In this document: piece after piece, positions 2,492-20,038 of the stretch | How positions within the stretch are numbered: the stretch's first letter is position 1 | Layout: every line of letters begins with the position of its first letter | Origin: a virus | DNA: 20,038 nucleotides | Virus genome (UHGV): UHGV-1340863 | Direction: 5' to 3' (one strand) | Translations under genes and position numbers: made by a program | The notes under the pieces: model-generated | What the model was told of the DNA's origin: nothing | Databases searched by the model: none | The model's input: only the letters and a program-made list of their open reading frames with translations

Positions 2492-2591
2492 NNNNNNNNN
2501 NNNNNNNNNNNNNNNNNNNNNNNNNNNNNNNNNNNNNNNNNNNNNNNNNNNNNNNNNNNNNNNNNNNNNNNNNNNNNNNNNNNNNNNNNNN
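2492..2591. other. Scaffold/assembly gap (100 N)
   Basis: Run of exactly 100 n characters. By gene order it should contain about 143 codons of E C-terminus, the E-FI intergenic spacer and about 16 codons of FI. Confidence 0.99.
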
Positions 2592-2944
2592 AACACGATG
2601 ATATTCACCACACCGCTGGCGTTCAGCGCGTAGGCTTCGATATCGTCGGTCGGGTCATACGTGGACTTGTCACGCTTGCTCCACTCCGTGCCGCCGGACT
2701 GCGTGATGTTATTCTCCTCACTGCGGCCCATATCCACCTCAACCGGATCGAAGGCTTCACCGGTCATGGTGTATTTGCCCTTAAGCACGGCAGAAACTGC
2801 CTGCATCTCTTCGACCTGAGCAATGGCCAGCTCTTCGTCACGCATGTTCTGCATGATGATGCGACGGCGGCGGTAAGCCGGGTCCACCAGATTCTGCGGA
2901 TCTTCATCCGGCAGGCGACGCAGGGTCATCTGCGGATTCACTTC
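2592..2944 (-). pseudogene. E: Major capsid protein E, internal fragment (about codons 83-198), separated from its N-terminus by the inserted element
   Basis: Translation (E)VNPQMTLRRLPDEDPQNL...ITQSGGTEWSKRDKSTYDPTDDIEAYALNASGVVNIIV matches lambda gpE. No start codon (the track's M is GTG = Val in context); upstream in frame is element-derived P-K-H then TAA at 2954-2956. Confidence 0.9.
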
Positions 2945-2982
2945 ATGCTTGGGTTACATGAGTCAAATAGAAAAAAGATACT

Positions 2983-3010
2983 TGATTTAACAGAGATTTA
3001 TTTTATAAAT
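2983..3010 (+). promoter_or_regulatory. Candidate sigma70 promoter upstream of the TIR gene (TTGATT-N16-TATAAA)
   Basis: TTGATT at 2983-2988 and TATAAA at 3005-3010 with 16-nt spacing in an AT-rich leader. Pattern match only. Confidence 0.25.
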
Positions 3011-3031
3011 GAGAGGGTGCAGAATTACGTA

Positions 3032-3052
3032 GCAATACATGCTGCAATACAT
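3032..3052 (+). repeat. Direct repeat GCAATACAT x2 (candidate integrase arm-type sites, attL side)
   Basis: gcaatacat at 3032-3040 and 3044-3052; the same GCAATACA motif recurs at the other element end (13525-13561). Confidence 0.5.
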
Positions 3053-3162
3053 GGTTAGGGAAAAGCCTTCTTGGCATCGTACAAAAAACAAACCGAATTT
3101 TTTCTAACACAGCCAAGTAAAGCCTCCTTCACTTAATTAGTTAAATTATAAAGGAATATTCA

Positions 3163-4305
3163 ATGAAAATTTTTCTTGCTCATGCAAAAGAAGATGAAAC
3201 GATAACTGAAGAAATCTATGAAAGGCTAAAAAGTGGAGGATATTCCCCTTGGATGGATGTAAAAGATATACCCGCTGGCGTAAACTGGGATTATGAAATC
3301 CAAAAAAACTTCGCTAATTCAAACTTGATAATCCTTATCCTTAGCAAAGTGAGCACTCAGAAAAATGGTTATATTCGCCGCGAAATAAATGACGCCATTG
3401 ATAAACTAAAGTATTACAAACCAGATGATGTGTTCGTGATACCATTACTTATTGATGATTGCGAAGTACCCGCCTACATATCAAGCAAGCTCCAATTCAT
3501 TGATTTTAAGAGAAATGATGGTTGGGACATTTTATCTAGATCTTTAAGATTAGCAGCATCGCAACAAAAACTTGAAATATCTCAAGGTATCACTTATGGG
3601 CCATTTAACTTTAGCAGCGAGGTTTTCAAGGAAGAATATAACAAGATCCCAGGGCATGAAATTGAAATAGCATATCCAAGAATTGAAAGCCATACATTAC
3701 CGAAATCAGCAAAACTCATTAGTGATTACTTTTCAGGAAAAGCGGCTTTACATATTTTTTCTGAACGCACATCACTATGGCCAGGAACACCATATTGGGA
3801 TGAAGAATATAAACACACTTACACTAGTTCCTATAATGAAAGTTATAACATCTCATACTGTAACGAAAATGTCATGAGCATCCTTCATTCCGTACATTGG
3901 TATGGTGCGGGAGCAGCACACCCTAACAGTCATTTTGAAACTAGTAATTTCGTAATAACCAAGGATGACTACGCATACAAATTTAGTTTATGGGATGTAT
4001 TTACCGAAGGGAAAGAGCAAGAAGCGATTAATAAGATAAAACAAAAAATAATCTCTGAATCAGCTCGTGAATTTTGGGAGAAAACTGGTGAAAAACCAAG
4101 TGAGGACGACATTAGTACGTTTGCAACGGGTATCATGGATAGTAACTTAGACTCGTTCACAATAAATAGTGATGGATTTAGATTCCATTTTGCACCTTAC
4201 GAAATTCATGCATATGCTTTTGGTTCTTGGGAATTCTTTATCTCATTCTTTGAAGTAATAGACTTCCTTAAAGAGGATGGAATTTACTCTCTAATAAGGA
4301 GTTAA
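3163..4305 (+). CDS. TIR-domain protein (N-terminal TIR about 135 aa plus about 245-aa C-terminal domain of unknown function); candidate anti-phage NADase-type defence protein
   Basis: 380-aa ORF with AAGGAA Shine-Dalgarno 7 nt upstream of ATG. The N-terminus MKIFLAHAKEDE...GYSPWMDVKDIPAGVNWDYEIQKNFANSNLIILILSKVSTQKNGYIRREINDAIDK...DDVFVIPLLID has the bacterial TIR pattern, with a candidate catalytic Glu near residue 74 in YIRREI. Strongly AT-rich compared with its neighbours. I cannot assign the C-terminal domain by eye. Confidence 0.75.
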   Translation: MKIFLAHAKEDETITEEIYERLKSGGYSPWMDVKDIPAGVNWDYEIQKNFANSNLIILILSKVSTQKNGYIRREINDAIDKLKYYKPDDVFVIPLLIDDCEVPAYISSKLQFIDFKRNDGWDILSRSLRLAASQQKLEISQGITYGPFNFSSEVFKEEYNKIPGHEIEIAYPRIESHTLPKSAKLISDYFSGKAALHIFSERTSLWPGTPYWDEEYKHTYTSSYNESYNISYCNENVMSILHSVHWYGAGAAHPNSHFETSNFVITKDDYAYKFSLWDVFTEGKEQEAINKIKQKIISESAREFWEKTGEKPSEDDISTFATGIMDSNLDSFTINSDGFRFHFAPYEIHAYAFGSWEFFISFFEVIDFLKEDGIYSLIRS

Positions 4306-4314
4306 CATTTCAAT

Positions 4315-4337
4315 AAGCCTGAAATTTAATCAGGCTT
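4315..4337 (+). terminator. Hairpin downstream of the TIR gene (candidate intrinsic terminator)
   Basis: aagcctga (4315-4322) / tcaggctt (4330-4337) with a 7-nt loop, followed by an A/T-rich tail atatacatttcc; begins 10 nt after the TIR stop codon. Confidence 0.4.
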
Positions 4338-4659
4338 ATATACATTTCCTTATGATTAAATTATTGCTGTTCTTAAGCAAAGATGCAGCCAGAAGTAATT
4401 CCCCCTCAAGCTTGCTTGCACACATAAAGAACTGACACAAAACTCTGCTGTAAAGTTGTCTAGCCACACAGCAAAAAACATATGAAACTTTGTTATTCGC
4501 AAACTGCTTGCTCTATATTCCACCATCAAGGCGCATAAAGCAATTGCAATGGCGCAGAAGTAGGCCATAACTATGAAGTGAAGCTAGCGGCGCGTTATTG
4601 GCCGCTTCTGAATAGTGCCTGATTCAACTCAGGGATAAGATTTTTTCTGGTGATAGACC

Positions 4660-4850
4660 GCGACGGATGGCAACAAAACCAGAGAAAGGAAACGACAGAG
4701 GCCAAAAAGCCTGTTTTTAGCACCTGTCGTTTCCTTTCTTTTTAGGGGGTGTTTTTAATAAAAACATTAAGTTACGGCGAAGAAGAACGGAAACGCCTTA
4801 AACAGGAAAATTTTCACAAATAGCAAAAAACTGCGCGCCTGACGCCCCGT
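4660..4850 (-). other. Second, element-borne lambda-type cos site (cosB-like R/I-site region plus variant cosN-like sequence)
   Basis: 4674-4840 aligns by eye, same orientation, with the helper cosB at 19872-20038, differing at roughly 10 positions. The adjacent cgcgcctgacgccccgtaacg (4829-4849) resembles the lambda cosN region (GTTACG GGGCGGCGACCT CGCGGG, from memory) but is variant. Confidence 0.8.
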
Positions 4851-4903
4851 AACGTTCTGGATCGCCGGAAAGGACCCGCCAGCCAGAGCGGGCCCTAATT
4901 TCA

Positions 4904-5287
4904 TCAACCAATCAGCTTATAGCGACCATCCCGTGCATTGCGGCGTACACGCTCAATCTTGAGGCATAGCGCCGCATCTGGCTTTTTTGGGACAGGTACG
5001 CGGCAATATTCAGAAGCGCGAGGAATATTATTTATCCAGTCGATCACTTCACTTAAATACCAGGCCTTACGCCCTTCCGTAACCTGCACACGCTCCGGGA
5101 ACTCTCCACTAGCCTCAAGGTTTAGCAGTGTACGACGACTCAGGGTTGTAATTTCCATCACCTGATTCATATCAACAAGGCGCTCGCTTAAACACATTTT
5201 GTCAGCGATAGCTTTTAATTCCTCTACAGCTTGATTCGGGTACATCATTTCGGCAATTGGCTTAAGGTCATTGTAATCATTCTGCAT
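4904..5287 (-). CDS. AlpA/excisionase-family wHTH protein, cos-adjacent (function unknown; regulator or packaging-redirection candidate)
   Basis: 127-aa ORF with AAGGGGGA SD. The segment ITTLSRRTLLNLEASGEFPERVQVTEGRKAWYLSEVIDWINN has the AlpA/Xis-type HTH signature; the gene ends 54 nt from the element cos. Confidence 0.6.
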   Translation of the reverse strand: MQNDYNDLKPIAEMMYPNQAVEELKAIADKMCLSERLVDMNQVMEITTLSRRTLLNLEASGEFPERVQVTEGRKAWYLSEVIDWINNIPRASEYCRVPVPKKPDAALCLKIERVRRNARDGRYKLIG

Positions 5288-5298
5288 TGTATCCCCCT

Positions 5299-5640
5299 TT
5301 ACACACGAGCCAGCGGCTGAACAGAAATACCTGAGCCAACAAACGCTGCAACCTTTACTGACAGTTCTTTAACAGACTCAGGCCAGTTCAGAGCATCAAC
5401 ATTTAAGACACCTGTCTTATAGACCTGAGCCTGTGTTTTTTTCGCGGTGTCGATTTGTACAGCGGAAACATAAACCGCTTTACCTACGCTCGAACCATCC
5501 CATACCACCAGTGCACCTGTTGCATCTTCCTGCATCAGTGGCGTAAATGCAGGAATTACCCCTTTATTAGCTGAAAATATCCCCAGCGTAGTCACCAGTG
5601 CTTCAGTGCCAGCCATGAGTTCAGTGTAATGAGTAGCCAT
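5299..5640 (-). CDS. Head decoration protein, lambda gpD-like (element-encoded paralogue)
   Basis: 113 aa; TPLMQEDATGALVVWDGSS...YKTGVLNVDALNWPESVKELSVKVAAFVGSGISV aligns with lambda D ([19 protein letters not shown]...[34 protein letters not shown]). AAGGGGGAG SD; start 10 nt after the E-like gene stop. Confidence 0.8.
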   Translation of the reverse strand: MATHYTELMAGTEALVTTLGIFSANKGVIPAFTPLMQEDATGALVVWDGSSVGKAVYVSAVQIDTAKKTQAQVYKTGVLNVDALNWPESVKELSVKVAAFVGSGISVQPLARV

Positions 5641-5649
5641 TGCTCCCCC

Positions 5650-6690
5650 TTAGCCAATGCGAACGGTAACAAAACGATTGATGCGGGCCGGTATTGGCTG
5701 TGGTGCTGAATGTGTCTGCACATATTCAATAGCCGGATCACCAGGCACAATATAGTTTTTCGGTGCAAGTTCGGCTTTAGTCAGCCCCATTCGGATTAGC
5801 TCCGGATCCTGAATACCGCCATAGGCGACAATCCCCTGAAGAGCCGTATTGCCAAGCACCATCAAATCAGGATCAAGGAAATGTTTTTCTGTTCCGTCCT
5901 CGTCGGTATAACGCCCGCTGTAAACAACAATCGCAACATCGCCCATATACCCTTTAAAACTCACCGAATCACCAAGGTCTTTAAGGGCCGTTTCCAGTTC
6001 GGAATTAGAACCACGACGGGTATCCAGAGCCTCTTTTATCGCTCTGAATGAACGGTATTTCTTCCATACATTACCGCCCATAATGATAATATTAGTGACG
6101 CCCTCACTAAATTCTGCGTAGCTCTCAATATCATCATTTGGATCAAAAGTTTCTTTATCCTTACCTGACCACTCAGCACCGCCAGACTGAGTGATGATAT
6201 TTTGTGGTTTAATATTCCAGTCCAGCTCATAACGTTCAATACCATCGCCCTCAATGATATTTTTCCCCGTTGTGATTGCCTGAACAGCAAGCCATTCAAT
6301 ACGTGCACGAATAGCTTTAGCTTGATTTACAATCGCCTGTTTAACTTTAATATTACGCGCCCCAAAAGCATTGTATTGCTCAGGTGATACACCAGCAGGG
6401 CGCACAGCTAACTTATTTGGATCAATGCTGCTTTTCGGCTTCATATAGCCTGGACGAATTGTTTTTGATTCGTACCCTTCGTCACGTGAAACTTTACTAC
6501 CCACCATAGGAGAACAAAACGCTGCAATTGGGATATTTGGATCGTCGATTGTATCAAGAATAATATCGCGCGATTCAAACATTACCGAGCGAGTAAAAAA
6601 CAAACTGGTAAACAACGCATTTAGTTGTTTTTGTACATCTACAGCATTAACCACCTGTACAAGCTGAGTAGGCGAATATAAATCAACCAT
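5650..6690 (-). CDS. Major capsid protein, lambda gpE-like (element-encoded, diverged paralogue of the interrupted helper E)
   Basis: Aligns with lambda E along its whole length, e.g. NIITQSGGAEWSGKDKETFDPNDDIESYAEF vs NNITQSGGTEWSKRDKSTYDPTDDIEAYALN, and FRAIKEALDTRRGSNSELETALKDLG...GDVAIVVYSG vs FKAVKEKLDTRRGSNSELETAVKDLG...GDVAIVVYSG. Start set at ATG 6688-6690 (MVDLYSPTQL..., SD AGAGG) rather than the ORF-track start at 6864; 346 aa vs 341 for E. Confidence 0.85.
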   Translation of the reverse strand: MVDLYSPTQLVQVVNAVDVQKQLNALFTSLFFTRSVMFESRDIILDTIDDPNIPIAAFCSPMVGSKVSRDEGYESKTIRPGYMKPKSSIDPNKLAVRPAGVSPEQYNAFGARNIKVKQAIVNQAKAIRARIEWLAVQAITTGKNIIEGDGIERYELDWNIKPQNIITQSGGAEWSGKDKETFDPNDDIESYAEFSEGVTNIIIMGGNVWKKYRSFRAIKEALDTRRGSNSELETALKDLGDSVSFKGYMGDVAIVVYSGRYTDEDGTEKHFLDPDLMVLGNTALQGIVAYGGIQDPELIRMGLTKAELAPKNYIVPGDPAIEYVQTHSAPQPIPARINRFVTVRIG

Positions 6691-6864
6691 ACGCATCCTC
6701 TTTGCATTCATTAAAAATAATTGTGGATATATGCTATCACCGATATTTGTCATGCGAATACATGCAACCGAGTGCAATGTTGTATAAAGTTTTGGGGTGA
6801 CAACTTCAGTGCGGAAAATTAGTGTTAATATCTTCACTCCCTTTGGTCGGGATTTATGTAGCAT

Positions 6865-6899
6865 GCCGGAAAATTTATTTTTTCCGGCCTTTTTTTATT
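6865..6899 (+). terminator. Strong intrinsic-terminator-like hairpin, active in plus orientation
   Basis: gccggaaaa (6865-6873) / ttttccggc (6880-6888) stem followed by a run of T residues (6889-6899). On the minus strand the stem is not followed by a U-tract. Confidence 0.5.
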
Positions 6900-6907
6900 G
6901 GCAATAT

Positions 6908-7357
6908 TTAAAACGGGATATCATCTCCCCATTGCTCATTATCTCCCACTGGTGGCTGGCTTCCTTGCTGATCTGCCTGTTGTTTTGCTCTGTTCAGTGC
7001 GTCAGTAGCCTGCCCCTGTTGGCCTTTATTGCCGCCCGGTCGCACCGATCGCGCACTGATTACGCTGTCTGCGATAACCTGCCAGCCCTGCCGCGTTTCG
7101 CCGTTCTGTCCAGTCCACTGGCTCATCTGCATGTTACCCGCCACGCTCAGGAGTTCGCCTTTGTGATGCTTTGCCAGCGCGTCGGCTTGTCTGCCAAACG
7201 CCAGGACAGATAACCACATCGTCGCCTGACCGTCATCCGACTGACTGCAGGGCAGTGATACCGCCATACGCGCCAGCGTCATGGGGGTGCCCTTGCTGGT
7301 CTGTTTTGTCTGCGGGTCGTCCACCAACCGCCCGTAAACTGATATTTGCGCCGTCAT
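6908..7357 (-). CDS. ssb: Single-stranded DNA-binding protein (SSB)
   Basis: 149 aa; N-terminal OB-fold-like region (ISVYGRLVDDPQ..., WTGQNGETRQGWQVIADSV), Gly/Gln-rich linker and the hallmark acidic C-terminal tail ...WGDDIPF. GGAGAG SD; ATGA overlap with the upstream ORF. Confidence 0.8.
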   Translation of the reverse strand: MTAQISVYGRLVDDPQTKQTSKGTPMTLARMAVSLPCSQSDDGQATMWLSVLAFGRQADALAKHHKGELLSVAGNMQMSQWTGQNGETRQGWQVIADSVISARSVRPGGNKGQQGQATDALNRAKQQADQQGSQPPVGDNEQWGDDIPF

Positions 7358-7599
7358 GCTGCCTGCTCTCCGGACTTAATATTGATTGTTGTCACTTCCT
7401 CCGCTTCAGCAATCTCCCGTTCGGTCAGAGTGGCAAAGTTTGCAGCCGCCGTTGTCATGAATGCGCTAATCAGTTCGGGATGTGCTTTCGCGTATCCTTC
7501 CCCGGCGTTGCGGTCGATGATTTTTATCGACACCCTTAACCAGTGTTCCGTCAAATCAAGGGCGTGCGATTGTGATTTTTTTGTGTGCTTCGCTGTCAT
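7354..7599 (-). CDS. Hypothetical protein (81 aa), translationally coupled to ssb
   Basis: ORF between the iteron cluster and ssb; its stop overlaps the ssb start (ATGA). No recognisable motif; weak RBS. Confidence 0.45.
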   Translation of the reverse strand: MTAKHTKKSQSHALDLTEHWLRVSIKIIDRNAGEGYAKAHPELISAFMTTAAANFATLTEREIAEAEEVTTINIKSGEQAA

Positions 7600-7650
7600 A
7601 GGCTTTATCTCACAGCAGTAAATTAAAATTTTTGCGTTTTAACCCTTCAC

Positions 7651-7873
7651 CTGTTCACCTTTTGATATTTTCTCTTTTAATTCATAATGTTAATTGGTGA
7701 ACAGTTTCACAAAAACTATTCACCAACTGTTCACCACTGTTCACCCTTGAAGCTCAATAAACAATCAAAAAGGTGAACAGTGAATAGTTTGGTGAACAGT
7801 TCATAAATAACTGTTCACCCTATAATATACTGATATAAAAGATATTTATGACAGGGTGAACAGTGGTGAACAG
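7651..7873. repeat. Iteron cluster: at least 9 copies of GGTGAACAG/CTGTTCACC in both orientations; candidate satellite origin of replication
   Basis: Copies at 7651-7659, 7696-7704, 7727-7735, 7737-7745, 7772-7780, 7791-7799, 7811-7819, 7855-7863 and 7865-7873, embedded in AT-rich DNA immediately downstream of the replication-protein gene. Confidence 0.8.
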
Positions 7874-7886
7874 TTATTCCATAAGT

Positions 7887-9707
7887 TTAATTTTTGCTAT
7901 CGTCATTAGTGACCGATACACATGATGGCATCCAGTCTTCTGATTCCTCCGTCAGTGTCACGTTTGAACGCAAACCGTGCTTCGTTTTCCGTTTCATATA
8001 CTCCCTGCCATATTCCGCCATTGCCCCCGGCATATCTTTACCGAAGCGCGTCAGTGTTACAGGTTTACCAAACCCATGTGCCCTCATATAAGCCAGATAG
8101 GCATGATAGAGATACCTGCGTGGGCTGAATGGCACAATTTCAGCATTACCCACTAACAGGCCATCACACATTACCGATGCCATGAGATAGCCGCAGAAGT
8201 CCACCAGCGAATCCCCCTCTCGCTTTATCGCCAGTGCTTCTTCAGATTTCTGCTGCTCATATAACAGGCGTCTGGCTTCGTCCTGATCAGCAAACCGTGT
8301 AAGCAGATGGCGAATCACTACCGCCAGCTCACCTTCTATTTTTTCCGCCAGCATCGAATCGCGTTCGTTCTCCGGTACAACTTCCGAAAAATTGAATATC
8401 ACCCGACGACGTGAGATCCCCCCGCTGCGGTCACTGAATGACATGGCGTTATTGTTAACCGCCAGCACTACTGCCGGAATACGCGTTGAATAGGGGGCTT
8501 TGTGTTTCGGGTCAATTGCCACCTTGTCACCGCCTGTAATGGCCTTAATCCCTGCCCCATCACCAGCGTAGCGGGTCATATCCGGCATGATAATCAGCGA
8601 AAAGCCAACCACTAACGCACGTTCCCTTGCATCTTCCAGCGCCTTCATGCTTGCTGATACTGTATTAGCCTTACCCGCCAGCATGGTGCAAATCTCCGCC
8701 ATCACACTTTTACCACTTCCCCCCGGCCCTGTTACCTCAATGAATAACTGCCAGTCGTACCGGTTCGCCAGCACCATGAATAATGCCGCCAGTACGCGAT
8801 CTGCCTTGCGGTCATTCTCAGCCACCGAACGGCGCAACCACTTCCAGAAATTCGGCGCATGTGTTGCCAGCGTTTCCCCCTCTGCTGGTGGGCTGAAAGG
8901 TAATTCACTGGCAATTAACAACCAGTCGTTTTTGTTATGCTCCCGAAAGTTACCAGTTCTGGTATCAAATACCCCGTTACTGAATCCAATCAGGTTACGG
9001 GCTGTATTCCCCATTACAGGCAAACTTAACTTCATGGTATCTACCGCCGATTTAATAGCGTTCTGCGAATAGCTGATCTCCGCATCAATGAAAATCTGCG
9101 CCATAGCACGCTGTAACTCTTTATCCTGAACCGGCTCCCATACAACGCCGTTGTAATGATGAACGGTGTCAGAGTCGGCATTGATTGCCAGTTCGCCGCC
9201 GTAATGTGCAAGGAGAACTTCACCGCGCTGGCTGGCCCCCATCTGATTCAACGCCAAAGATGAAGCACGCTCGTCATTTTTGCGCTCAGCCTTCTTAACT
9301 GGCAGTTCAATCACCAGACTTTCCCCATGCTCCGCTTCAGCTTTTAGGCCGACAAGGCGCGGAGTCCAGTCTTCAGGCTCTCGATCAACAAAGCTACGGT
9401 AACAACGTGCTTCCTTTACGCCTGCAATAGCAAGTAATGTCGCAACCTTCGTCAGACTTTTCTCTGCAATCTTTCCGGCACGATAAACACGCACATAATG
9501 ACGGCCTTCATCGATAATTTGCATATCATCCAGGTTTTCCAGTTGTTCCGTACCCAGAATGACTGGTGGTGTATCATCTGCTGCAATATGCTTACCTGCC
9601 CATTCATTCCATTCTTTTGCATGGCTCCAGGCATCACTGCCAGCAAAAATGATGACTTCCGTCATTTTGTCGCGCGGTTGGTATTTTAAGTTCGGAGCAC
9701 GTTTCAT
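7887..9707 (-). CDS. Replication initiator: D5/P4-alpha-type SF3 helicase-primase (PICI Pri-Rep-like)
   Basis: 606 aa; Walker A motif VTGPGGSGKS with a downstream hydrophobic stretch ending in acidic residues (LIIMPDM); overall resemblance to the C-terminal NTPase of phage/plasmid primases. GGAGGT SD; ATGA overlap with the upstream small ORF; iterons directly downstream. Confidence 0.75.
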   Translation of the reverse strand: MKRAPNLKYQPRDKMTEVIIFAGSDAWSHAKEWNEWAGKHIAADDTPPVILGTEQLENLDDMQIIDEGRHYVRVYRAGKIAEKSLTKVATLLAIAGVKEARCYRSFVDREPEDWTPRLVGLKAEAEHGESLVIELPVKKAERKNDERASSLALNQMGASQRGEVLLAHYGGELAINADSDTVHHYNGVVWEPVQDKELQRAMAQIFIDAEISYSQNAIKSAVDTMKLSLPVMGNTARNLIGFSNGVFDTRTGNFREHNKNDWLLIASELPFSPPAEGETLATHAPNFWKWLRRSVAENDRKADRVLAALFMVLANRYDWQLFIEVTGPGGSGKSVMAEICTMLAGKANTVSASMKALEDARERALVVGFSLIIMPDMTRYAGDGAGIKAITGGDKVAIDPKHKAPYSTRIPAVVLAVNNNAMSFSDRSGGISRRRVIFNFSEVVPENERDSMLAEKIEGELAVVIRHLLTRFADQDEARRLLYEQQKSEEALAIKREGDSLVDFCGYLMASVMCDGLLVGNAEIVPFSPRRYLYHAYLAYMRAHGFGKPVTLTRFGKDMPGAMAEYGREYMKRKTKHGLRSNVTLTEESEDWMPSCVSVTNDDSKN

Positions 9708-9991
9708 TTGTTACCTCCGGCAACTAACATTGCCCGAATTTTACGGATATAGCCTGCGGCACGCCTCTGATTATCTGTCTTGCAATTTTTTACCAGAATG
9801 AAATCTCTTTCGAACTGCTGACGCGGCATAACACATTCAAAATCATAACCATCACGCAAATAAGAGACACGACGATCATCAACCGAAATAATCTTTACCC
9901 GATAGCCATAGCTGTCTTTGAAAATATCCCCAAGGCTGATTTTTGAATGAGTTTGACCGCTGGCAATAAAGCCAGAAAATTTATTTTTCAT
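9704..9991 (-). CDS. Hypothetical protein (95 aa), replication operon
   Basis: ORF in an operon-like array with stop/start overlap to the helicase-primase gene; no recognisable motif. Confidence 0.5.
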   Translation of the reverse strand: MKNKFSGFIASGQTHSKISLGDIFKDSYGYRVKIISVDDRRVSYLRDGYDFECVMPRQQFERDFILVKNCKTDNQRRAAGYIRKIRAMLVAGGNK

Positions 9992-9994
9992 TTT

Positions 9995-10219
9995 TTATTC
10001 TCCGGTATAGCTCTGGTCGTGTATTTTTATAGCTTCATCCAGCTCTTTGATGACAGGATCAAGTAACGTAATTAACGCTCCAGCTAAATTAGCATCCCGT
10101 TCATCGTGTTCCGCATTTGTTGTCCCATCAAGCCAGGTTGATAAGATTTCTCGCATATTTTTGCCACAAACGAGCGCGTTTTCAGCATGTGTCAGCACTT
10201 TAAAATAAAGATCATTCAT
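9995..10219 (-). CDS. Hypothetical protein (74 aa), replication operon
   Basis: Strong AGGAGGTG SD upstream of ATG at 10217-10219; overlaps the end of the upstream ORF by 8 nt. Confidence 0.5.
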   Translation of the reverse strand: MNDLYFKVLTHAENALVCGKNMREILSTWLDGTTNAEHDERDANLAGALITLLDPVIKELDEAIKIHDQSYTGE

Positions 10220-10577
10220 GGCACACCTCCTGACGAATACGGGCGGCGAATATCATCACGTAGCCAGTTGGGAATTGCTGGCGGGCTTCCTGTTCGCTGG
10301 CGGCCTCGATGTGTATTACGCGTGGTTGTGCGGTGCTCAGGGCGATAAAACGCCAGATGAAATTGTTTTCGCATTTCTGAATAAACAGCGTGTTTTCTTC
10401 ACGCCCTTTCCAGAAAGCCGCAGTATAGCCCATCTCCTTAACCATCTTGCGGGCATCAACCAGCGTGTCAGCGGCAACATGTACCGTAGTTGCTCCATCT
10501 GCCATGCGGTCGTGGTGTAGTGCCAGAAAGGTGTATATAAATTTAGGGTGAGTTTGGGTATGCTGTGTTCCAGCCAT
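10212..10577 (-). CDS. Hypothetical protein (121 aa), first gene of the leftward replication operon
   Basis: C-terminal 121 codons of the 304-aa track ORF, starting at ATG 10575-10577 (MAGTQHTQTH...) with a GAGGT SD. The long N-terminal extension in the track overlaps the operator region and the divergent gene and is rejected. Confidence 0.5.
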   Translation of the reverse strand: MAGTQHTQTHPKFIYTFLALHHDRMADGATTVHVAADTLVDARKMVKEMGYTAAFWKGREENTLFIQKCENNFIWRFIALSTAQPRVIHIEAASEQEARQQFPTGYVMIFAARIRQEVCHE

Positions 10578-10664
10578 AATCGTTACCTCGTTTAACGGTT
10601 TGGTTAGAAGCCCGGTTAGTGTTCGCGCACTGCCGGGTTTCGTCGTTTTTATGAATCGATCATT

Positions 10665-10766
10665 GTGAGATACATAGCGACCATGATGTGAGATATACAT
10701 TATATTGTGGTGATATACATTGCAAGTGTTTTTATATCTCACTTTTGTGTATAGTGATATACACAT
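10665..10766. promoter_or_regulatory. Operator-like repeat cluster (GTGAGATA(TA)CAT x5, one inverted) in a divergent promoter region
   Basis: gtgagatacat 10665-10675, gtgagatatacat 10688-10700, gtgatatacat 10710-10720, inverted tatatctcac 10733-10742, gtgatatacacat 10754-10766; lies between the divergent genes starting at 10577 (-) and 10786 (+). Confidence 0.6.
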
Positions 10767-10785
10767 AACAAATTGGTGATTAACT

Positions 10786-11088
10786 ATGTCTGTATACAAA
10801 AATGCAAAATCGCAAATGACAACGATCAGGGTTCCCCACGATGTTATGGAGGGCATGGAATCCGTAAAACTGGACGGCGAAAGCAACGCCGGATTCATAG
10901 TAACCGCCATGCGCGGTGAGATCGCCCGCCGCCAGGCAGAAGGAAGCGGAGAAAATCCCCTCGTGTCTTCACTGGATGCCTTAGCTAAGGTCGAACAAAT
11001 CGGCATCAAGGCAGCGGAGGAAATCGGGCAACTCGTAGCCGTCGCTCGTGAAGAACTCCAGCGGCGTAAAGCCAAAGAATCTGAATAA
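10786..11088 (+). CDS. Putative small DNA-binding regulator (possible ribbon-helix-helix fold), divergent from the replication operon
   Basis: 100-aa ORF with GGTGA SD; N-terminal TTIRVPHDVMEGMESV resembles an RHH beta-strand/helix start. Position next to the operator repeats fits a repressor or activator role. Fold assignment is a guess. Confidence 0.45.
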   Translation: MSVYKNAKSQMTTIRVPHDVMEGMESVKLDGESNAGFIVTAMRGEIARRQAEGSGENPLVSSLDALAKVEQIGIKAAEEIGQLVAVAREELQRRKAKESE

Positions 11089-11097
11089 TTACTATCA

Positions 11098-11124
11098 GCG
11101 CCGTGATGTGAGTAACTACGGCGC
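11098..11124 (+). terminator. Hairpin downstream of the regulator gene
   Basis: gcgccgt (11098-11104) / acggcgc (11118-11124) stem with 13-nt loop, 10 nt after the stop codon; the downstream tail is only moderately T-rich. Confidence 0.35.
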
Positions 11125-11438
11125 ATTGCTATGTAAATACTGGCAATAAACAGAAAAGGTAGTTCTACTCCGAATAATTTTATCTGACACTACTCCTGAA
11201 CTAACATGCGCTTATCTTACAGGATATAAATATAGATCCATAAAATCACGATTAAATAAAGTCGCTCCAAACATAAACCACACCCAACGCTTAACAAGAT
11301 AGCAACAAACAGATAAATAACTTGCAGAAATATTTATCGCAAGGATTATCATTATTAATTACAAATCACTTTACCAAGTCATTCCCCTCTCTTATCATAA
11401 AGAGAAAGTAATAAATAAGTTAAGGGAGTTAGAATACT

Positions 11439-11975
11439 ATGAATCTAAAAAAAATAGCCACAAACATAAAAAACAAGATAATAGAAACATTCAATAAACT
11501 TATATTAGAGGCATCTAAAACCCCCACACAAGATGAAATTAAAATACTTGAGAGAAGAAGTAAAAAGTTTAATTACTCCTTTTTCTCATACGCAGTCACA
11601 GGAGCCATAATGGTTTTTTGCTCTCAACCATTAATAAAATACGCAAACCCAATGCTTATTTTATTGAGTGGTCTGTTACTGTCTATCATCATTATCCTTC
11701 TCAGAATGATTTATATTTCACAAGCGAATGCATCATGGACAACCAAAAAACGTTCACATGTACTAGTTCATTTTCTTTCTGCATGTTTCATAGCGTCAAC
11801 ATTGACGTTGTTATATCAGGCTTACGATAATAACATCACACACAAATTGTACTGTAAAAATATACAACAACTTATTGAAAAAAGGATAGAAACAGAAAAA
11901 AATATCAGCATATTCAGTGGGATGCAATGCACCCCGGCATATGATTACTCTTTATTTGGATTTAATCTCTTATAA
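11439..11975 (+). CDS. AT-rich multi-pass membrane protein (178 aa), function unknown; cargo gene candidate
   Basis: Three hydrophobic helices (AVTGAIMVFCSQPLI, MLILLSGLLLSIIIILLRMIYI, VLVHFLSACFIASTLTLLYQAY); GGGAG SD upstream; strongly AT-rich island (about 11100-12040) flanked by GC-richer element genes. Confidence 0.6.
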   Translation: MNLKKIATNIKNKIIETFNKLILEASKTPTQDEIKILERRSKKFNYSFFSYAVTGAIMVFCSQPLIKYANPMLILLSGLLLSIIIILLRMIYISQANASWTTKKRSHVLVHFLSACFIASTLTLLYQAYDNNITHKLYCKNIQQLIEKRIETEKNISIFSGMQCTPAYDYSLFGFNLL

Positions 11976-12044
11976 AGAATGTTATTACTGATTTGAGTGC
12001 AAATTCTCAAATCAGTAATTCATAATATTTTATTCTGAGATAAT

Positions 12045-12272
12045 TTAAACTACCCACTCACCTCGAATCCATGCCTGCACTTCTGAAAGACGATATGCAA
12101 CAGCAGTGGAGCCAATCTTGATCCGCTTAGGAAATTTCCCTTCCTTCTCCAGCTTCCAGCGTGTGCTGTTCGCAAGAGTGGTTAGCTCCCGACATTCTTT
12201 CTCACGGATCATACGATCGATGTTAGGAATGTACTCCAGACCCTTTTTATCAACAATCGCCATTTTTTTCAT
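12045..12272 (-). CDS. AlpA-family HTH protein (excisionase / transcriptional activator candidate)
   Basis: 75 aa; LTTLANSTRWKLEKEGKFPKRIKIGSTAVAYRLSEVQAWIRGE matches the AlpA/Xis HTH pattern (..EGKFPKP.K.G.R...W...E.Q.WI); directly downstream of int. Confidence 0.75.
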   Translation of the reverse strand: MKKMAIVDKKGLEYIPNIDRMIREKECRELTTLANSTRWKLEKEGKFPKRIKIGSTAVAYRLSEVQAWIRGEWVV

Positions 12273-12273
12273 G

Positions 12274-13509
12274 TTAACCAGCCTTTTGTTTGAGGATTAT
12301 CACTTTTGAATCAGCACCTGCGATGCTATTGAGATATGTAGTCCAGAGTTCCAGAGCATCCAGTTTTTTAGCCATAAACTTACTCCGGTTGTAAACACCT
12401 GCCACGCCAGGTAGCGCATGGCCTAACAGTTGTTCTACTACATAAAATTCAACACCGAGATCACTTAGATGAGTAGATAGCGTTCTTCTAAGGTCGTGTA
12501 GTGACCATTGTTTTTCATGGCCCAAACGTTTACCGATTTTCCCCCCAATCTTGCTTACGCTTTCTCTAATTCGCAGACTTCCCAGCACATAACCAGTATG
12601 TTTTGTCTCTTCGTGAACATCCGTTACCCACTGTCGTAGAATTTCAGGTACTGGTCTGACGATTTCAACACCAGTTTTTGAGTGATCTTTTGGTACAGTC
12701 CAAACCCAACTTTCGAGATCCCATTCGCTCCATTCTGATAATCGGGCTTCACTCATTCGACATCCAAATACTGTACAAAGTACAAACATTTTTCGCGTGT
12801 ATTCAGACATTAGTTTTAAATCAGGCTCGACAAAAATTGCTTTCCAGAGCTGGCCCAGCTCGGCTTCATCCAGAACCCGATCCCGCTTACCTGCAATCTG
12901 CCCCACATCACTCATGCGCAAATCCTTTAAAGCATCACACGTCGCGTACTGGCGTACCCGACAAAAACGAAGAGCTAATTTAGTGTCAGAAAAAACATAC
13001 GCCGCCATAACTGGTGCATTACGTTTAATTCGGTCAAAACAGTCCAGCCATTCATATAGGTGAGTGTCATTTACAGGCAAATGACCGATATAGGGAAAAA
13101 TATGCTTTCGAAATCTGCCAAGCGTTACAGCATGAGTTTTACGACGCACCTTACAGTAATTTTCATACCAGTAATTTAGTGCATCCTCCACTGTGACCGG
13201 CTTTAAGCGTTCTTCAGCCTGAATCTTAATCTGGATACGCGGATCACGTTTGTCAGCCAACCAACCACGGCACTCGTCGCGCTTTTCCCTTGCCTGTTTG
13301 AGTGACATATCAGGATATTTACCCAACGTTAGCCAGACCGGAGCAGCCCGGCCACCTGCTAACCTGTAGAAGAAAACAAAGCTCACAGCCCCCTTGGTAC
13401 TCACACGAATAGAAAGCCCCTTTCCATCAGCAATGGTGATCTGCTTTTCTCTGGGTTTCCCCAGATATCCTTTAAGTGCTTTGTCGCTCAGTTTGTTCTC
13501 GCCAGCCAT
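12274..13509 (-). CDS. int: Tyrosine site-specific integrase (P4-type, N-terminal arm-binding domain)
   Basis: 411 aa from ATG 13507-13509 (MAGENKLSDK...); C-terminal catalytic region with HDLRRT and LLGH motifs plus a downstream Tyr; terminal gene of the element, beside the right junction. Confidence 0.88.
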   Translation of the reverse strand: MAGENKLSDKALKGYLGKPREKQITIADGKGLSIRVSTKGAVSFVFFYRLAGGRAAPVWLTLGKYPDMSLKQAREKRDECRGWLADKRDPRIQIKIQAEERLKPVTVEDALNYWYENYCKVRRKTHAVTLGRFRKHIFPYIGHLPVNDTHLYEWLDCFDRIKRNAPVMAAYVFSDTKLALRFCRVRQYATCDALKDLRMSDVGQIAGKRDRVLDEAELGQLWKAIFVEPDLKLMSEYTRKMFVLCTVFGCRMSEARLSEWSEWDLESWVWTVPKDHSKTGVEIVRPVPEILRQWVTDVHEETKHTGYVLGSLRIRESVSKIGGKIGKRLGHEKQWSLHDLRRTLSTHLSDLGVEFYVVEQLLGHALPGVAGVYNRSKFMAKKLDALELWTTYLNSIAGADSKVIILKQKAG

Positions 13510-13524
13510 TTTAAGCCCCAAAAA

Positions 13525-13561
13525 GCAATACAAGCTGCAATACAGAGATGATTGCAACACA
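13525..13561 (+). repeat. Direct repeats GCAATACA x2 plus GCAACACA (candidate integrase arm-type sites, attR side / int leader)
   Basis: gcaataca at 13525-13532 and 13537-13544, gcaacaca at 13554-13561; same motif and orientation as 3032-3052 at the opposite end. Confidence 0.5.
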
Positions 13562-13641
13562 CAGATAACGAGGAAAATCCAGTGAAAGCGCCAGATAGAC
13601 TTATTCTTTATTATCAAAAGATTAAGTGTAAAAACCAGCAA

Positions 13642-13917
13642 CTACACGAAAGCCTCAGAAAGCCATGCTAAGTGCTTCGGCTTGACATATCCCGGCGTAA
13701 ATTCAGAGGTGGAGCCGCCACGGGAACGGATAACCTCACCGGAAACAATCGGCGAAACGTACAGCGCCATGTTTACCAGTCCCGGAATTTGTGAGAGATA
13801 GACTTTCTCCGTGGTGAAGGGATAGCTCTCACGGAAAAAGAGACGCAGAAACAGCGGATCAAACTTAAATTTCTGCTCATTTGCCGCCAGCAGCTGGGCG
13901 GTTGTGTACATCGACAT
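13642..13917 (-). pseudogene. E: Major capsid protein E, N-terminal 82 codons fused to 9 element-derived codons and a stop
   Basis: MSMYTTAQLLAANEQKFKFDPLFLRLFFRESYPFTTEKVYLSQIPGLVNMALYVSPIVSGEVIRSRGGSTSEFTPGYVKPKH matches lambda E 1-82, then LAWLSEAFV-stop encoded by element sequence (13642-13671). Confidence 0.9.
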
Positions 13918-13972
13918 AAAAAAATCCCGTAAAAAAAGCCGCACAGGCGGCCTTTAGTGATGAAGGGTAAAG

Positions 13973-14305
13973 TTAAACGATGCTGATTGCCGTTCCGGCA
14001 AACGCGGTCCGTTTTTTCGTCTCGTCGCTGGCAGCCTCCGGCCAGAGCACATCCTCATAACGGAACGTGCCGGACTTGTAGAACGTCAGCGTGGTGCTGG
14101 TCTGGTCAGCAGCAACCGCAAGAATGCCAACGGCAGCACCGTCGGTGGTGCCATCCCACGCAACCAGCTTACGGCTGGAGGTGTCCAGCATCAGCGGGGT
14201 CATTGCAGGCGCTTTCGCACTCAATCCGCCGGGCGCGGTTGCGGTATGAGCCGGGTCACTGTTGCCCAGCGGCTGGTAATGGGTAAAGGTTTCTTTGCTC
14301 GTCAT
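13973..14305 (-). CDS. D: Head decoration protein D
   Basis: [12 protein letters not shown]...[11 protein letters not shown], 110 aa, matches lambda gpD; start taken at the internal ATG that reproduces the lambda N-terminus. Confidence 0.92.
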
Positions 14306-14314
14306 AAACATCCC

Positions 14315-14920
14315 TTACACTGGTGTGTTCAGCAAATCGTTAACGGCATCAGATGCCAGGTTACCTGCAGCCAGCGGTGCCGGTGCCCCCTGCATCAGAC
14401 GATCCAGCGCAGTGTCACTGCGCGCCTGTGCACTCTGTGGTGCAACTGCCAGAATGCGGCGGGCCGTTTCCACGGTCATACCAGGGGTTTCGGCCAGCAC
14501 GCGTGCCTGTTCTTCGCGTCCGTGAGCTTCCTCACAGTTGAGGATCCCCATAATGCGACTGTTTTCTGCCGCAACCGCTGCGGTGATCTGCGCGTTCACG
14601 TCCGGCTGCGCAGCGCTGGCGTTCTCGCCCTCCGTCGCTGGCACCACGCCAGTAACGTCAGCCTGCGAAGCAGTGGCTGAAACAGTTGTTGATTGAGTCT
14701 CTTTGGTCATTCGCCCTCCTGAGAGACGGGATTTACGTGCATCCAGTGCATCACGCATGACGGTGATCGCATCGGTACTGTTAACAAGTTCATCAGCCAG
14801 TCCGGCATCAATGGCCTCCTGACCGCTGTACACTGCAGCCTCGGTATCCAGCACAGCCTGCACGGACAGGCCGGTATATGCCGACACCTTCTGTGCAAAC
14901 ATCCGGCGGGTTGCATCCAT
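14315..14920 (-). CDS. Nu3: Scaffolding protein Nu3 (in-frame internal start within C)
   Basis: In lambda, Nu3 is the C-terminal 201 codons of the C frame; here an ATG lies exactly 201 codons before the shared stop (MDATRRMFAQKVSAYTG...). Confidence 0.7.
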   Translation of the reverse strand: MDATRRMFAQKVSAYTGLSVQAVLDTEAAVYSGQEAIDAGLADELVNSTDAITVMRDALDARKSRLSGGRMTKETQSTTVSATASQADVTGVVPATEGENASAAQPDVNAQITAAVAAENSRIMGILNCEEAHGREEQARVLAETPGMTVETARRILAVAPQSAQARSDTALDRLMQGAPAPLAAGNLASDAVNDLLNTPV

Positions 14921-19861: not shown

Positions 19862-20038
19862 TGTTCATTCCACGGACAAAAACAGAGAAAGGAAACGACA
19901 GAGGCCAAAAAGCCCGTTTTCAGCACCTGTCGTTTCCTTTCTTTTCAGGGAGTGTTTTAAATAAAAACATTAAGTTACGGCGAAGAAGAACGGAAACGCC
20001 TTAAACCGGAAAATTTTCATAAATAGCGAAAACCCGCG
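19862..20038 (-). other. Helper cosB region (Nu1-binding R sites and IHF site); window ends at the edge of cosN
   Basis: Reverse complement reads CGCGGGTTTTCGCTATTTATGAAAATTTTCCGGTTTAAGGCGTTTCCGTTCTTCTTCG...GAAAGGAAACGACAGG..., matching the left end of the lambda genome just after the 12-nt cohesive end GGGCGGCGACCT (from memory). Confidence 0.85.

Follow-up and report, generated by a model that had tools for sequence, protein, structure and literature searches.

How does a lambda-like prophage come to carry its major capsid gene E in two pieces, and what is the DNA that separates them? The question is raised by the virus genome UHGV-1340863, a stretch of 20,038 nt (hereafter the window), for which an original prediction, made from the letters alone, had proposed that an integrase-bearing, satellite-like element of about 10.7 kb is inserted within E. 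We hold with high confidence that the insert is a helper-embedded phage-inducible chromosomal island (HE-PICI) of the group E:Phage_cap_E:80, i.e., a close variant of Eco567.11capE residing in a lambda-like helper of the "50icd-type". Such islands were described, named and surveyed by Tommasini, Mageeney and Williams (NAR Genomics and Bioinformatics 2023; PMC10111431), whose supplementary table lists Eco4802.11.E_Phage_cap_E_80 at CP019944.1/2491616-2502343. We find this copy to be 100.0% identical to the element of the window over its full length. Judged by this identity, the arrangement is already known as a class published in 2023, and the earlier view that it is unusual, in the sense of undescribed, does not hold given the 201 instances catalogued at the same site (PMC10111431). 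What the class stands for is a satellite within the capsid gene of a phage, i.e., the phage makes no heads until the satellite leaves, while the satellite is copied and transcribed passively by its host phage. The window adds the confirmation in many newer complete genomes as well as minor leads, namely a variant cosN, the TIR-DUF3298 slot and a possible antisense RNA.

The interruption can be followed base by base. E is of lambda type and lies on the minus strand. From its start at 13917 it matches lambda residue for residue to ...PGYVKPKH (Lys81-His82), i.e., to codon 82, after which the frame enters nine foreign codons (LAWLSEAFV) and stops. E picks up again at codon 83 (GAA, 2944-2942), about 10.7 kb further along the minus strand, such that the insert spans 10,727 bp (window 2946-13672). 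In E orientation, attL reads ...GTCAAGCCGAAGCA|CTTAGCATGG (with a longer right side, ...GTCAAGCCGAAGCA|CTTAGCATGGCTTTC...) and attR reads ...CATGTAACCCAAGCA|TGAAGTGAAT (also given as ...GACTCATGTAACCCAAGCA|TGAAGTGAATCCG...). The uninterrupted attB of lambda is ...GTCAAGCCGAAGCATGAAGTG (also given as ...GTCAAGCCGAAGCATGAAGTGAATCCG...). The bases common to both junctions are AAGCA only (13677-13673 and 2950-2946), and the borders proposed before (2945-13671) are right to within this core.

We also excised the insert in silico, for which the 3' third of E, missing from the window, was taken from the complete genome NZ_CP128888. The restored E has 341 codons and a stop codon. Of these 1026 nt, 3 deviate from lambda E, and one amino acid is changed (A102V). 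That is, the claim that no E codon is lost or gained is borne out, and the insertion is precise, so that E can be restored on excision. Both E fragments are annotated as partial capsid genes in NZ_CP128888. With regard to the site number in the group name, the 82-residue N-terminal piece of E covers positions 1-78 of the current Pfam profile Phage_cap_E, and the paper's own version of the profile gives 80.

A misjoining of the element and the lambda-like module in a draft assembly could produce the same picture, and the run of 100 N about 350 bp from the left junction might be taken as a sign of it. Both junctions, however, lie within contiguous sequence. Furthermore, NZ_CP128888 is 99.994% identical to the whole stretch, with one base differing outside the gap (99.994-100% identity on either side) and both junctions letter-identical. 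Compared with that genome, the N run replaces 513 bp, i.e., E from codon 200 to its last codon, 341, the spacer to FI and the first 15 codons of FI; on this comparison it is a scaffold gap of arbitrary length and not a length-preserving mask. A repeat formed by helper E and the satellite capsid gene was ruled out as the origin of the gap, since the two are 76% identical over 136 nt only. Given in addition the five complete genomes with full-length matches and the attL junction in 173 complete genomes (see below), we assign such an assembly or scaffolding artefact practically no probability. An assembler chimera, which the original prediction had also argued against, is excluded by the complete genomes.

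To see how widely the junction occurs, we follow here the earlier suggestion of searching the element against E. coli genomes. Full-length matches at 100.0% identity are found in five complete E. coli genomes, of which NZ_CP128888 was examined in detail. A 240-nt attL probe is spanned in 173/5,426 complete genomes, i.e., the junction is seen in about 3% of the complete E. coli genomes. IMG/VR adds 57 contigs with attL, and one IMG/VR hit, L009, is 100% identical to the window over 12 kb, while the attL-side pattern has no match in the GTDB representative genomes. A search for the excised junction had been proposed as well. The reconstructed attP, CATGTAACCCAAGCA|CTTAGCATGG, has no match in IMG/VR but is found in one contig of a human-gut metagenome (ORSG01002381, 8,651 bp), where the end carrying capsid, cos and cargo genes is joined to the integrase end via CATGTAACCCAAGCACTTAGCATGG, exactly as reconstructed. 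This contig stems from a relative with 94-98% identity, and its sequence identifies it as an excised or concatemeric form.

We then considered which bases the integration needs. Among 61 attL instances, the helper codons Tyr-Val-Lys-Pro in front of the core show at least eight synonymous variants. At window position 13678, the wobble base of Pro80 just before AAGCA, all four bases are seen (loci L001-L061), with a C in attP; beyond the core, attP carries a C at a position at which attB-derived sequence shows T. Since the bases flanking AAGCA vary in this way, the identity required between attP and attB is the 5-bp core only. The usual overlap of tyrosine recombinases is 6-8 bp, i.e., longer than the identity needed here. 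The same insertion is found with several helper E alleles and at the chromosomal sites icd, proP, ybhC and thrS. As several E alleles flank attL, integration happened repeatedly into different alleles.

The arms of attP carry a doubled motif (TGTATTGC, 4 nt, TGTATTGC) in two exact copies, where 0.21 are expected by chance. Its spacing to the core is fixed across the related loci, i.e., 128 nt downstream in 61/61 attL and 81-82 nt upstream in 9/10 attR. The published motif, tgTGTATTGCantgTGTATTGCa, has two co-oriented copies 132 +/- 2 downstream and 81 +/- 2 upstream of the attP centre (PMC10111431), and the copies and spacing in the window agree with this geometry. The site-specific integration that had been proposed is supported. 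Nine IMG/VR contigs (L052, L007, L033, L053, L011, L019, L048, L025, L049) show an exact attL next to flanking helper or satellite genes that are only about 78-81% identical to the window. Such divergent flanks beside an exact attL indicate that integrase and site also serve helper phages of far greater divergence, perhaps in other genera.

The closest described relative is Eco567.11capE, an 11-kb island that interrupts the capsid gene (lambda-E-like) of 50icd, a prophage of E. coli NRG857c; the survey lists 491 further instances at 14 late-gene sites (PMC10111431). The two islands show 98.3% nucleotide identity over 83% of the window element. They agree in the insertion nucleotides, the attP arm sequence, the doubled motif, the gene order and the variant cosN, and the helper is of the same type, located at icd in the matching complete genome NZ_CP128888. 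They differ in the attR-side cargo, which is DUF262+HEPN there and TIR-DUF3298 here, and in the helper E allele. The allele is lambda-like here (AAGCCGAAGCA), such that the identity block of attL and attR has 5 bp (AAGCA) instead of 10 bp (AACCCAAGCA). The supplement lists both an "aagca" and an "agccgaagca" block for elements of this genotype (PMC10111431). In a pairwise comparison, 409/411 residues of the integrase are identical to that of 11capE, which places it with the integrases of HE-PICIs, a clade that targets late genes repeatedly (PMC10111431).

With regard to PICIs of Gram-negative bacteria in general (PMC6092414), the insert shows the defining traits, i.e., int, alpA, pri with a 3' iteron origin, a length within 10-20 kb, a cos and no lysis or tail genes. 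It shares int-alpA, pri-ori, homologues of capsid and decoration genes and a size of 10-15 kb with EcCICFT073, the model cos PICI of Gram-negative bacteria (Fillol-Salom et al. 2018, 2019; PMC6092414, PMC6739421), as well as, as far as the sequence tells, cos packaging by lambdoid helpers. EcCICFT073, in contrast, is chromosomal and apart from its helper, and it retains cosN/cosQ with a foreign cosB read through Rpp, while we observe a helper-like cosB and an altered cosN 12-mer. Like capsid-forming PICIs (cf-PICIs), the insert carries its own major capsid gene; unlike them, it is without portal, protease, terminase and head-tail connector genes. We therefore rejected membership in the cf-PICIs, as only homologues of Phage_cap_E and HDPD were found by Pfam. 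A P4-like satellite was rejected too. This test covered a list of the open reading frames of at least 55 aa and a Pfam scan of those with an annotation in the matching complete genome; it gave no psu, sid or delta match, and only the Icd-like gene, the primase-helicase and the type of integrase are reminiscent of P4.

There is also a functional parallel outside the satellites. In phage regulatory switches, or active lysogeny (phi10403S in Listeria comK), a mobile element splits a gene whose expression is restored by precise excision. The same holds for the split and restoration of E, with the difference that the split gene here is part of another mobile element, the helper phage, while it is the satellite that benefits from the switch.

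The helper itself is represented in the window by the lambda-type late genes Nu1 (19861-19316), A, W, B, C and D (14311-13973), which precede E on the minus strand. In NZ_CP128888, the prophage is bordered by icd on one side and by a duplicated icd fragment on the other, and comprises integrase/excisionase, recombination, immunity, O/P-type replication, Q, lysis, head and tail genes. Together with the satellite, as a composite, it has about 58.8 kb, the helper alone about 48.1 kb. For the type strain it is published that, upon mitomycin C treatment, the composite excises and replicates and that precise excision of the satellite then restores E, as measured by quantitative PCR and deep sequencing (PMC10111431). 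The statement that the helper is dependent on what the insert supplies, or dead, was thus overstated. E is indeed interrupted, but "dead" does not apply, since the satellite of the type strain excises precisely and restores E.

Several observations weigh against the assignment to a working HE-PICI. Virions of helper or satellite were not recovered from the type strain (PMC10111431), such that transfer and true helper dependence are unproven. The excised form was seen once only, in a contig with 2.9x coverage. The side tail fibre gene of the helper is truncated in the complete genome NZ_CP128888, and the window itself contains a gap within E. The cosN of the satellite differs at 5 positions from that of the helper, and its cutting by the helper terminase is putative. 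Finally, among the insert proteins no Bro-N Pfam domain was found, nor was a P4-type immunity RNA (C4, isrK) seen at gathering score.

Part of these points would also be expected if the island had inactivated a prophage that is now decaying, i.e., for a dead-end insertion that is inherited vertically and has no working cycle. The type strain gave neither plaques nor particles (PMC10111431), and the helper has foreign inserts besides its tail fibre pseudogene. Nevertheless, E is undecayed, with an intact frame and only the few differences to lambda reported above, and the annotation of NZ_CP128888 shows the helper's remaining late genes as well as those for lysis, replication, immunity and integration as intact. 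The recurrence of the insertion with several E alleles and chromosomal sites, the published precise excision on induction (PMC10111431) and the attP form in the metagenome contig also oppose decay. We thus consider a dead end highly unlikely; for any single strain it retains some small probability, as particles have not been seen.

For the HE-PICI, the following cycle can be proposed. The tyrosine integrase of the satellite recombined attP (CATGTAACCCAAGCA|CTTAGCATGG) with codons 80-82 of the helper's E, which the sequence shows. After SOS induction, the composite would leave the chromosome and replicate, whereupon excision of the satellite would restore E, as the literature reports for the type element, which is 98% identical. 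The genes E, int, alpA, pri and the capsid gene are all on the minus strand, and int follows the 5' part of E. Late transcription of the helper, coming from D and the 5' part of E, would read into int and alpA. On the minus strand of 12000-14400, covering the 5' half of E and int, no terminator-like site was found, so that helper late transcription should reach int-alpA and trigger late excision. That is, excision of the satellite would be timed by the late promoter of the helper. The satellite would replicate from its own primase and iteron origin, and the helper terminase would package it through its cos, because the Nu1-binding side (cosB) of this cos is helper-like. A composite of about 59 kb is above the capacity of a lambda-size head. 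The helper would thus need the excision twice over, to obtain gpE and to bring its genome to a length that fits. Four units of the satellite, a calculated 42.9 kb, would fit a head of this size. Any role that the TIR cargo or the E-like and D-like proteins of the satellite play in this cycle is unproven.

The features of the window are collected in Table 1. The integrase at one end, two AlpA-family genes, the replication module with iterons and the separate cos had all been predicted and are present. The gene order is int-alpA, Icd-like block, pri-SSB-ori and capsid-decoration-cos. The Integration, Replication and Late zones are plain, while the position of the Bro zone is taken by the Icd-like/repressor-like and YlcI-like genes. 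The module with primase-helicase and single-stranded DNA-binding protein (SSB) has its origin candidate where origins of Gram-negative PICIs were described, i.e., 3' of pri (PMC6092414).

Table 1. Features of the window, listed in the reading direction of E (minus strand).
Feature	Position	Strand	Remark
Helper cosB region upstream of Nu1	19876..20038	-	window ends at first duplex base after the canonical 12-nt cohesive end
Helper gene E, 5' part (codons 1-82 to shared core), then 9 foreign codons and stop	13673..13917	-	identical to lambda E residues 1-82
attL copy of crossover core AAGCA	13673..13677	-	
Helper-embedded PICI, 10,727 bp	2946..13672	-	same orientation as E
Doubled motif TGTATTGCAGCTTGTATTGC, integrase side of attP	13525..13544	-	starts 128 nt after core
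Tyrosine integrase, Arm-DNA-bind_3 and Phage_integrase	12274..13509	-	Pfam; 409/411 identical to 11capE integrase
AlpA (Phage_AlpA), presumed excisionase/activator	12045..12272	-	Pfam
Predicted membrane protein, 178 aa, low GC	11439..11975	+	opposite orientation
YlcI/YnfO-family small protein (phrog_6522), low GC	10786..11088	+	
SymR-like antisense RNA candidate, sub-threshold	10572..10644	+	over ribosome-binding site and start codon of Icd-like gene
Icd-like / repressor-like protein	10212..10577	-	opens leftward early block; "Bro zone" position
74-aa hypothetical protein and DUF4222 protein, two small genes	9704..10219	-	
Primase-helicase, 606 aa (D5_N, DUF5906, Pox_D5)	7887..9707	-	Pfam
Replication origin candidate, about 11 copies of GGTGAACAGT	7648..7879	.	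both orientations; AT-rich; just downstream of pri
81-aa hypothetical protein and SSB	6908..7599	-	
Satellite E-family major capsid protein, 346 aa	5650..6690	-	42% identical to helper E
Satellite D-family head decoration protein	5299..5640	-	37% identical to helper D
Second AlpA-family regulator, 127 aa	4904..5287	-	
Satellite cos	4673..4878	-	flanks resemble helper cosQ/cosB
Cargo gene TIR_2 and DUF3298, 380 aa, 35% GC	3163..4305	+	variable slot adjoining attR
Doubled motif TGTATTGCAGCATGTATTGC, cargo side of attP	3032..3051	-	ends 81-82 nt before core
attR copy of crossover core AAGCA	2946..2950	-	
Helper gene E, 3' part (last base of codon 82 to codon 199)	2592..2945	-	remainder in N run
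Run of 100 N replacing 513 bp	2492..2591	.	

The slot next to attR deserves a separate look. Its cargo varies between genomes, with TIR-DUF3298, DUF262+HEPN, Abi and DUF2971 observed, and in this it resembles the defence hotspots of other satellites. In sequence searches of PADLOC, PHROGs and PDB, the TIR-DUF3298 cargo of the window is matched through its TIR domain only, which is closest to the TIR-APAZ of SPARTA. The sole other cargo match in these searches is a weak one of the C-terminal domain to an uncharacterised protein. The cargo is a single-gene candidate whose role is probably anti-phage defence. In the contig ORSG01002381 (L061), the stretch from cos to attP holds another cargo of 2.26 kb (4353-6611), which has no relation to the TIR gene of the window.

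Such defence-like cargo, here and at the same slot elsewhere, could also suit an integrative defence island that is no satellite at all and merely uses E as a safe landing site, with no phage-borne transfer. We give this reading hardly any credence. It leaves the cos, with a cosB side that shares 90-94% identity with the helper's, as well as the capsid and decoration genes unaccounted for. The full gene order of a Gram-negative PICI with its own replicon and an integrase from a clade that repeatedly targets late genes (PMC10111431) speak against it as well.

The cos sites of satellite and helper combine likeness and difference. In the flanks on the cosQ side and the cosB side, the satellite cos is 90-94% identical to the helper cos. 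Its 12-nt cohesive end (4836-4847, minus strand) is GGGCGTCAGGCG, compared to the canonical GGGCGGCGACCT of helper and lambda, i.e., 5/12 positions differ. The type element 11capE has the same variant cosN, and further variants are found in related loci; the HE-PICI paper does not mention a variant cosN (PMC10111431). In related loci, a Nu1-like start behind the cos was taken as the mark by which to tell helper sites from satellite sites. This sorting is noisy, and two variant cosN sites precede a Nu1-like start, such that it yields no firm count of helper and satellite cos sites.

The combination of a helper-like, terminase-docking cos side, a different 12-nt end and own E-like and D-like proteins suggests a further reading, in which the satellite would be partly autonomous in its capsid and have "private" DNA ends, i.e., there would be satellite-only capsids or a changed cutting of cos. 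Changed cutting may mean, e.g., that cos sites are skipped and a lambda-size head is filled by four 10.7-kb units. We consider this reading tentative and rather unlikely. Neither satellite-only capsids nor altered cos cutting is taken up in the published description (PMC10111431).

The window's own end touches the helper cos. Its last base, 20038, corresponds to lambda nucleotide 13, where the duplex begins behind the 12-nt cohesive end of the helper cos, and may reflect a terminase cut or chance.

Finally, a relaxed RNA search of the insert returned only a sub-threshold SymR-like match besides chance miRNA matches. The SymR match (Rfam) scores 35.3 bits compared to a gathering score of 61, with the full model covered and E = 0.001 for the element. 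The matched stretch closes with a GC-rich hairpin and a T run and is antisense to the Icd-like gene (10577-10212, minus strand). The candidate RNA may act as an antisense regulator of the satellite's early operon.

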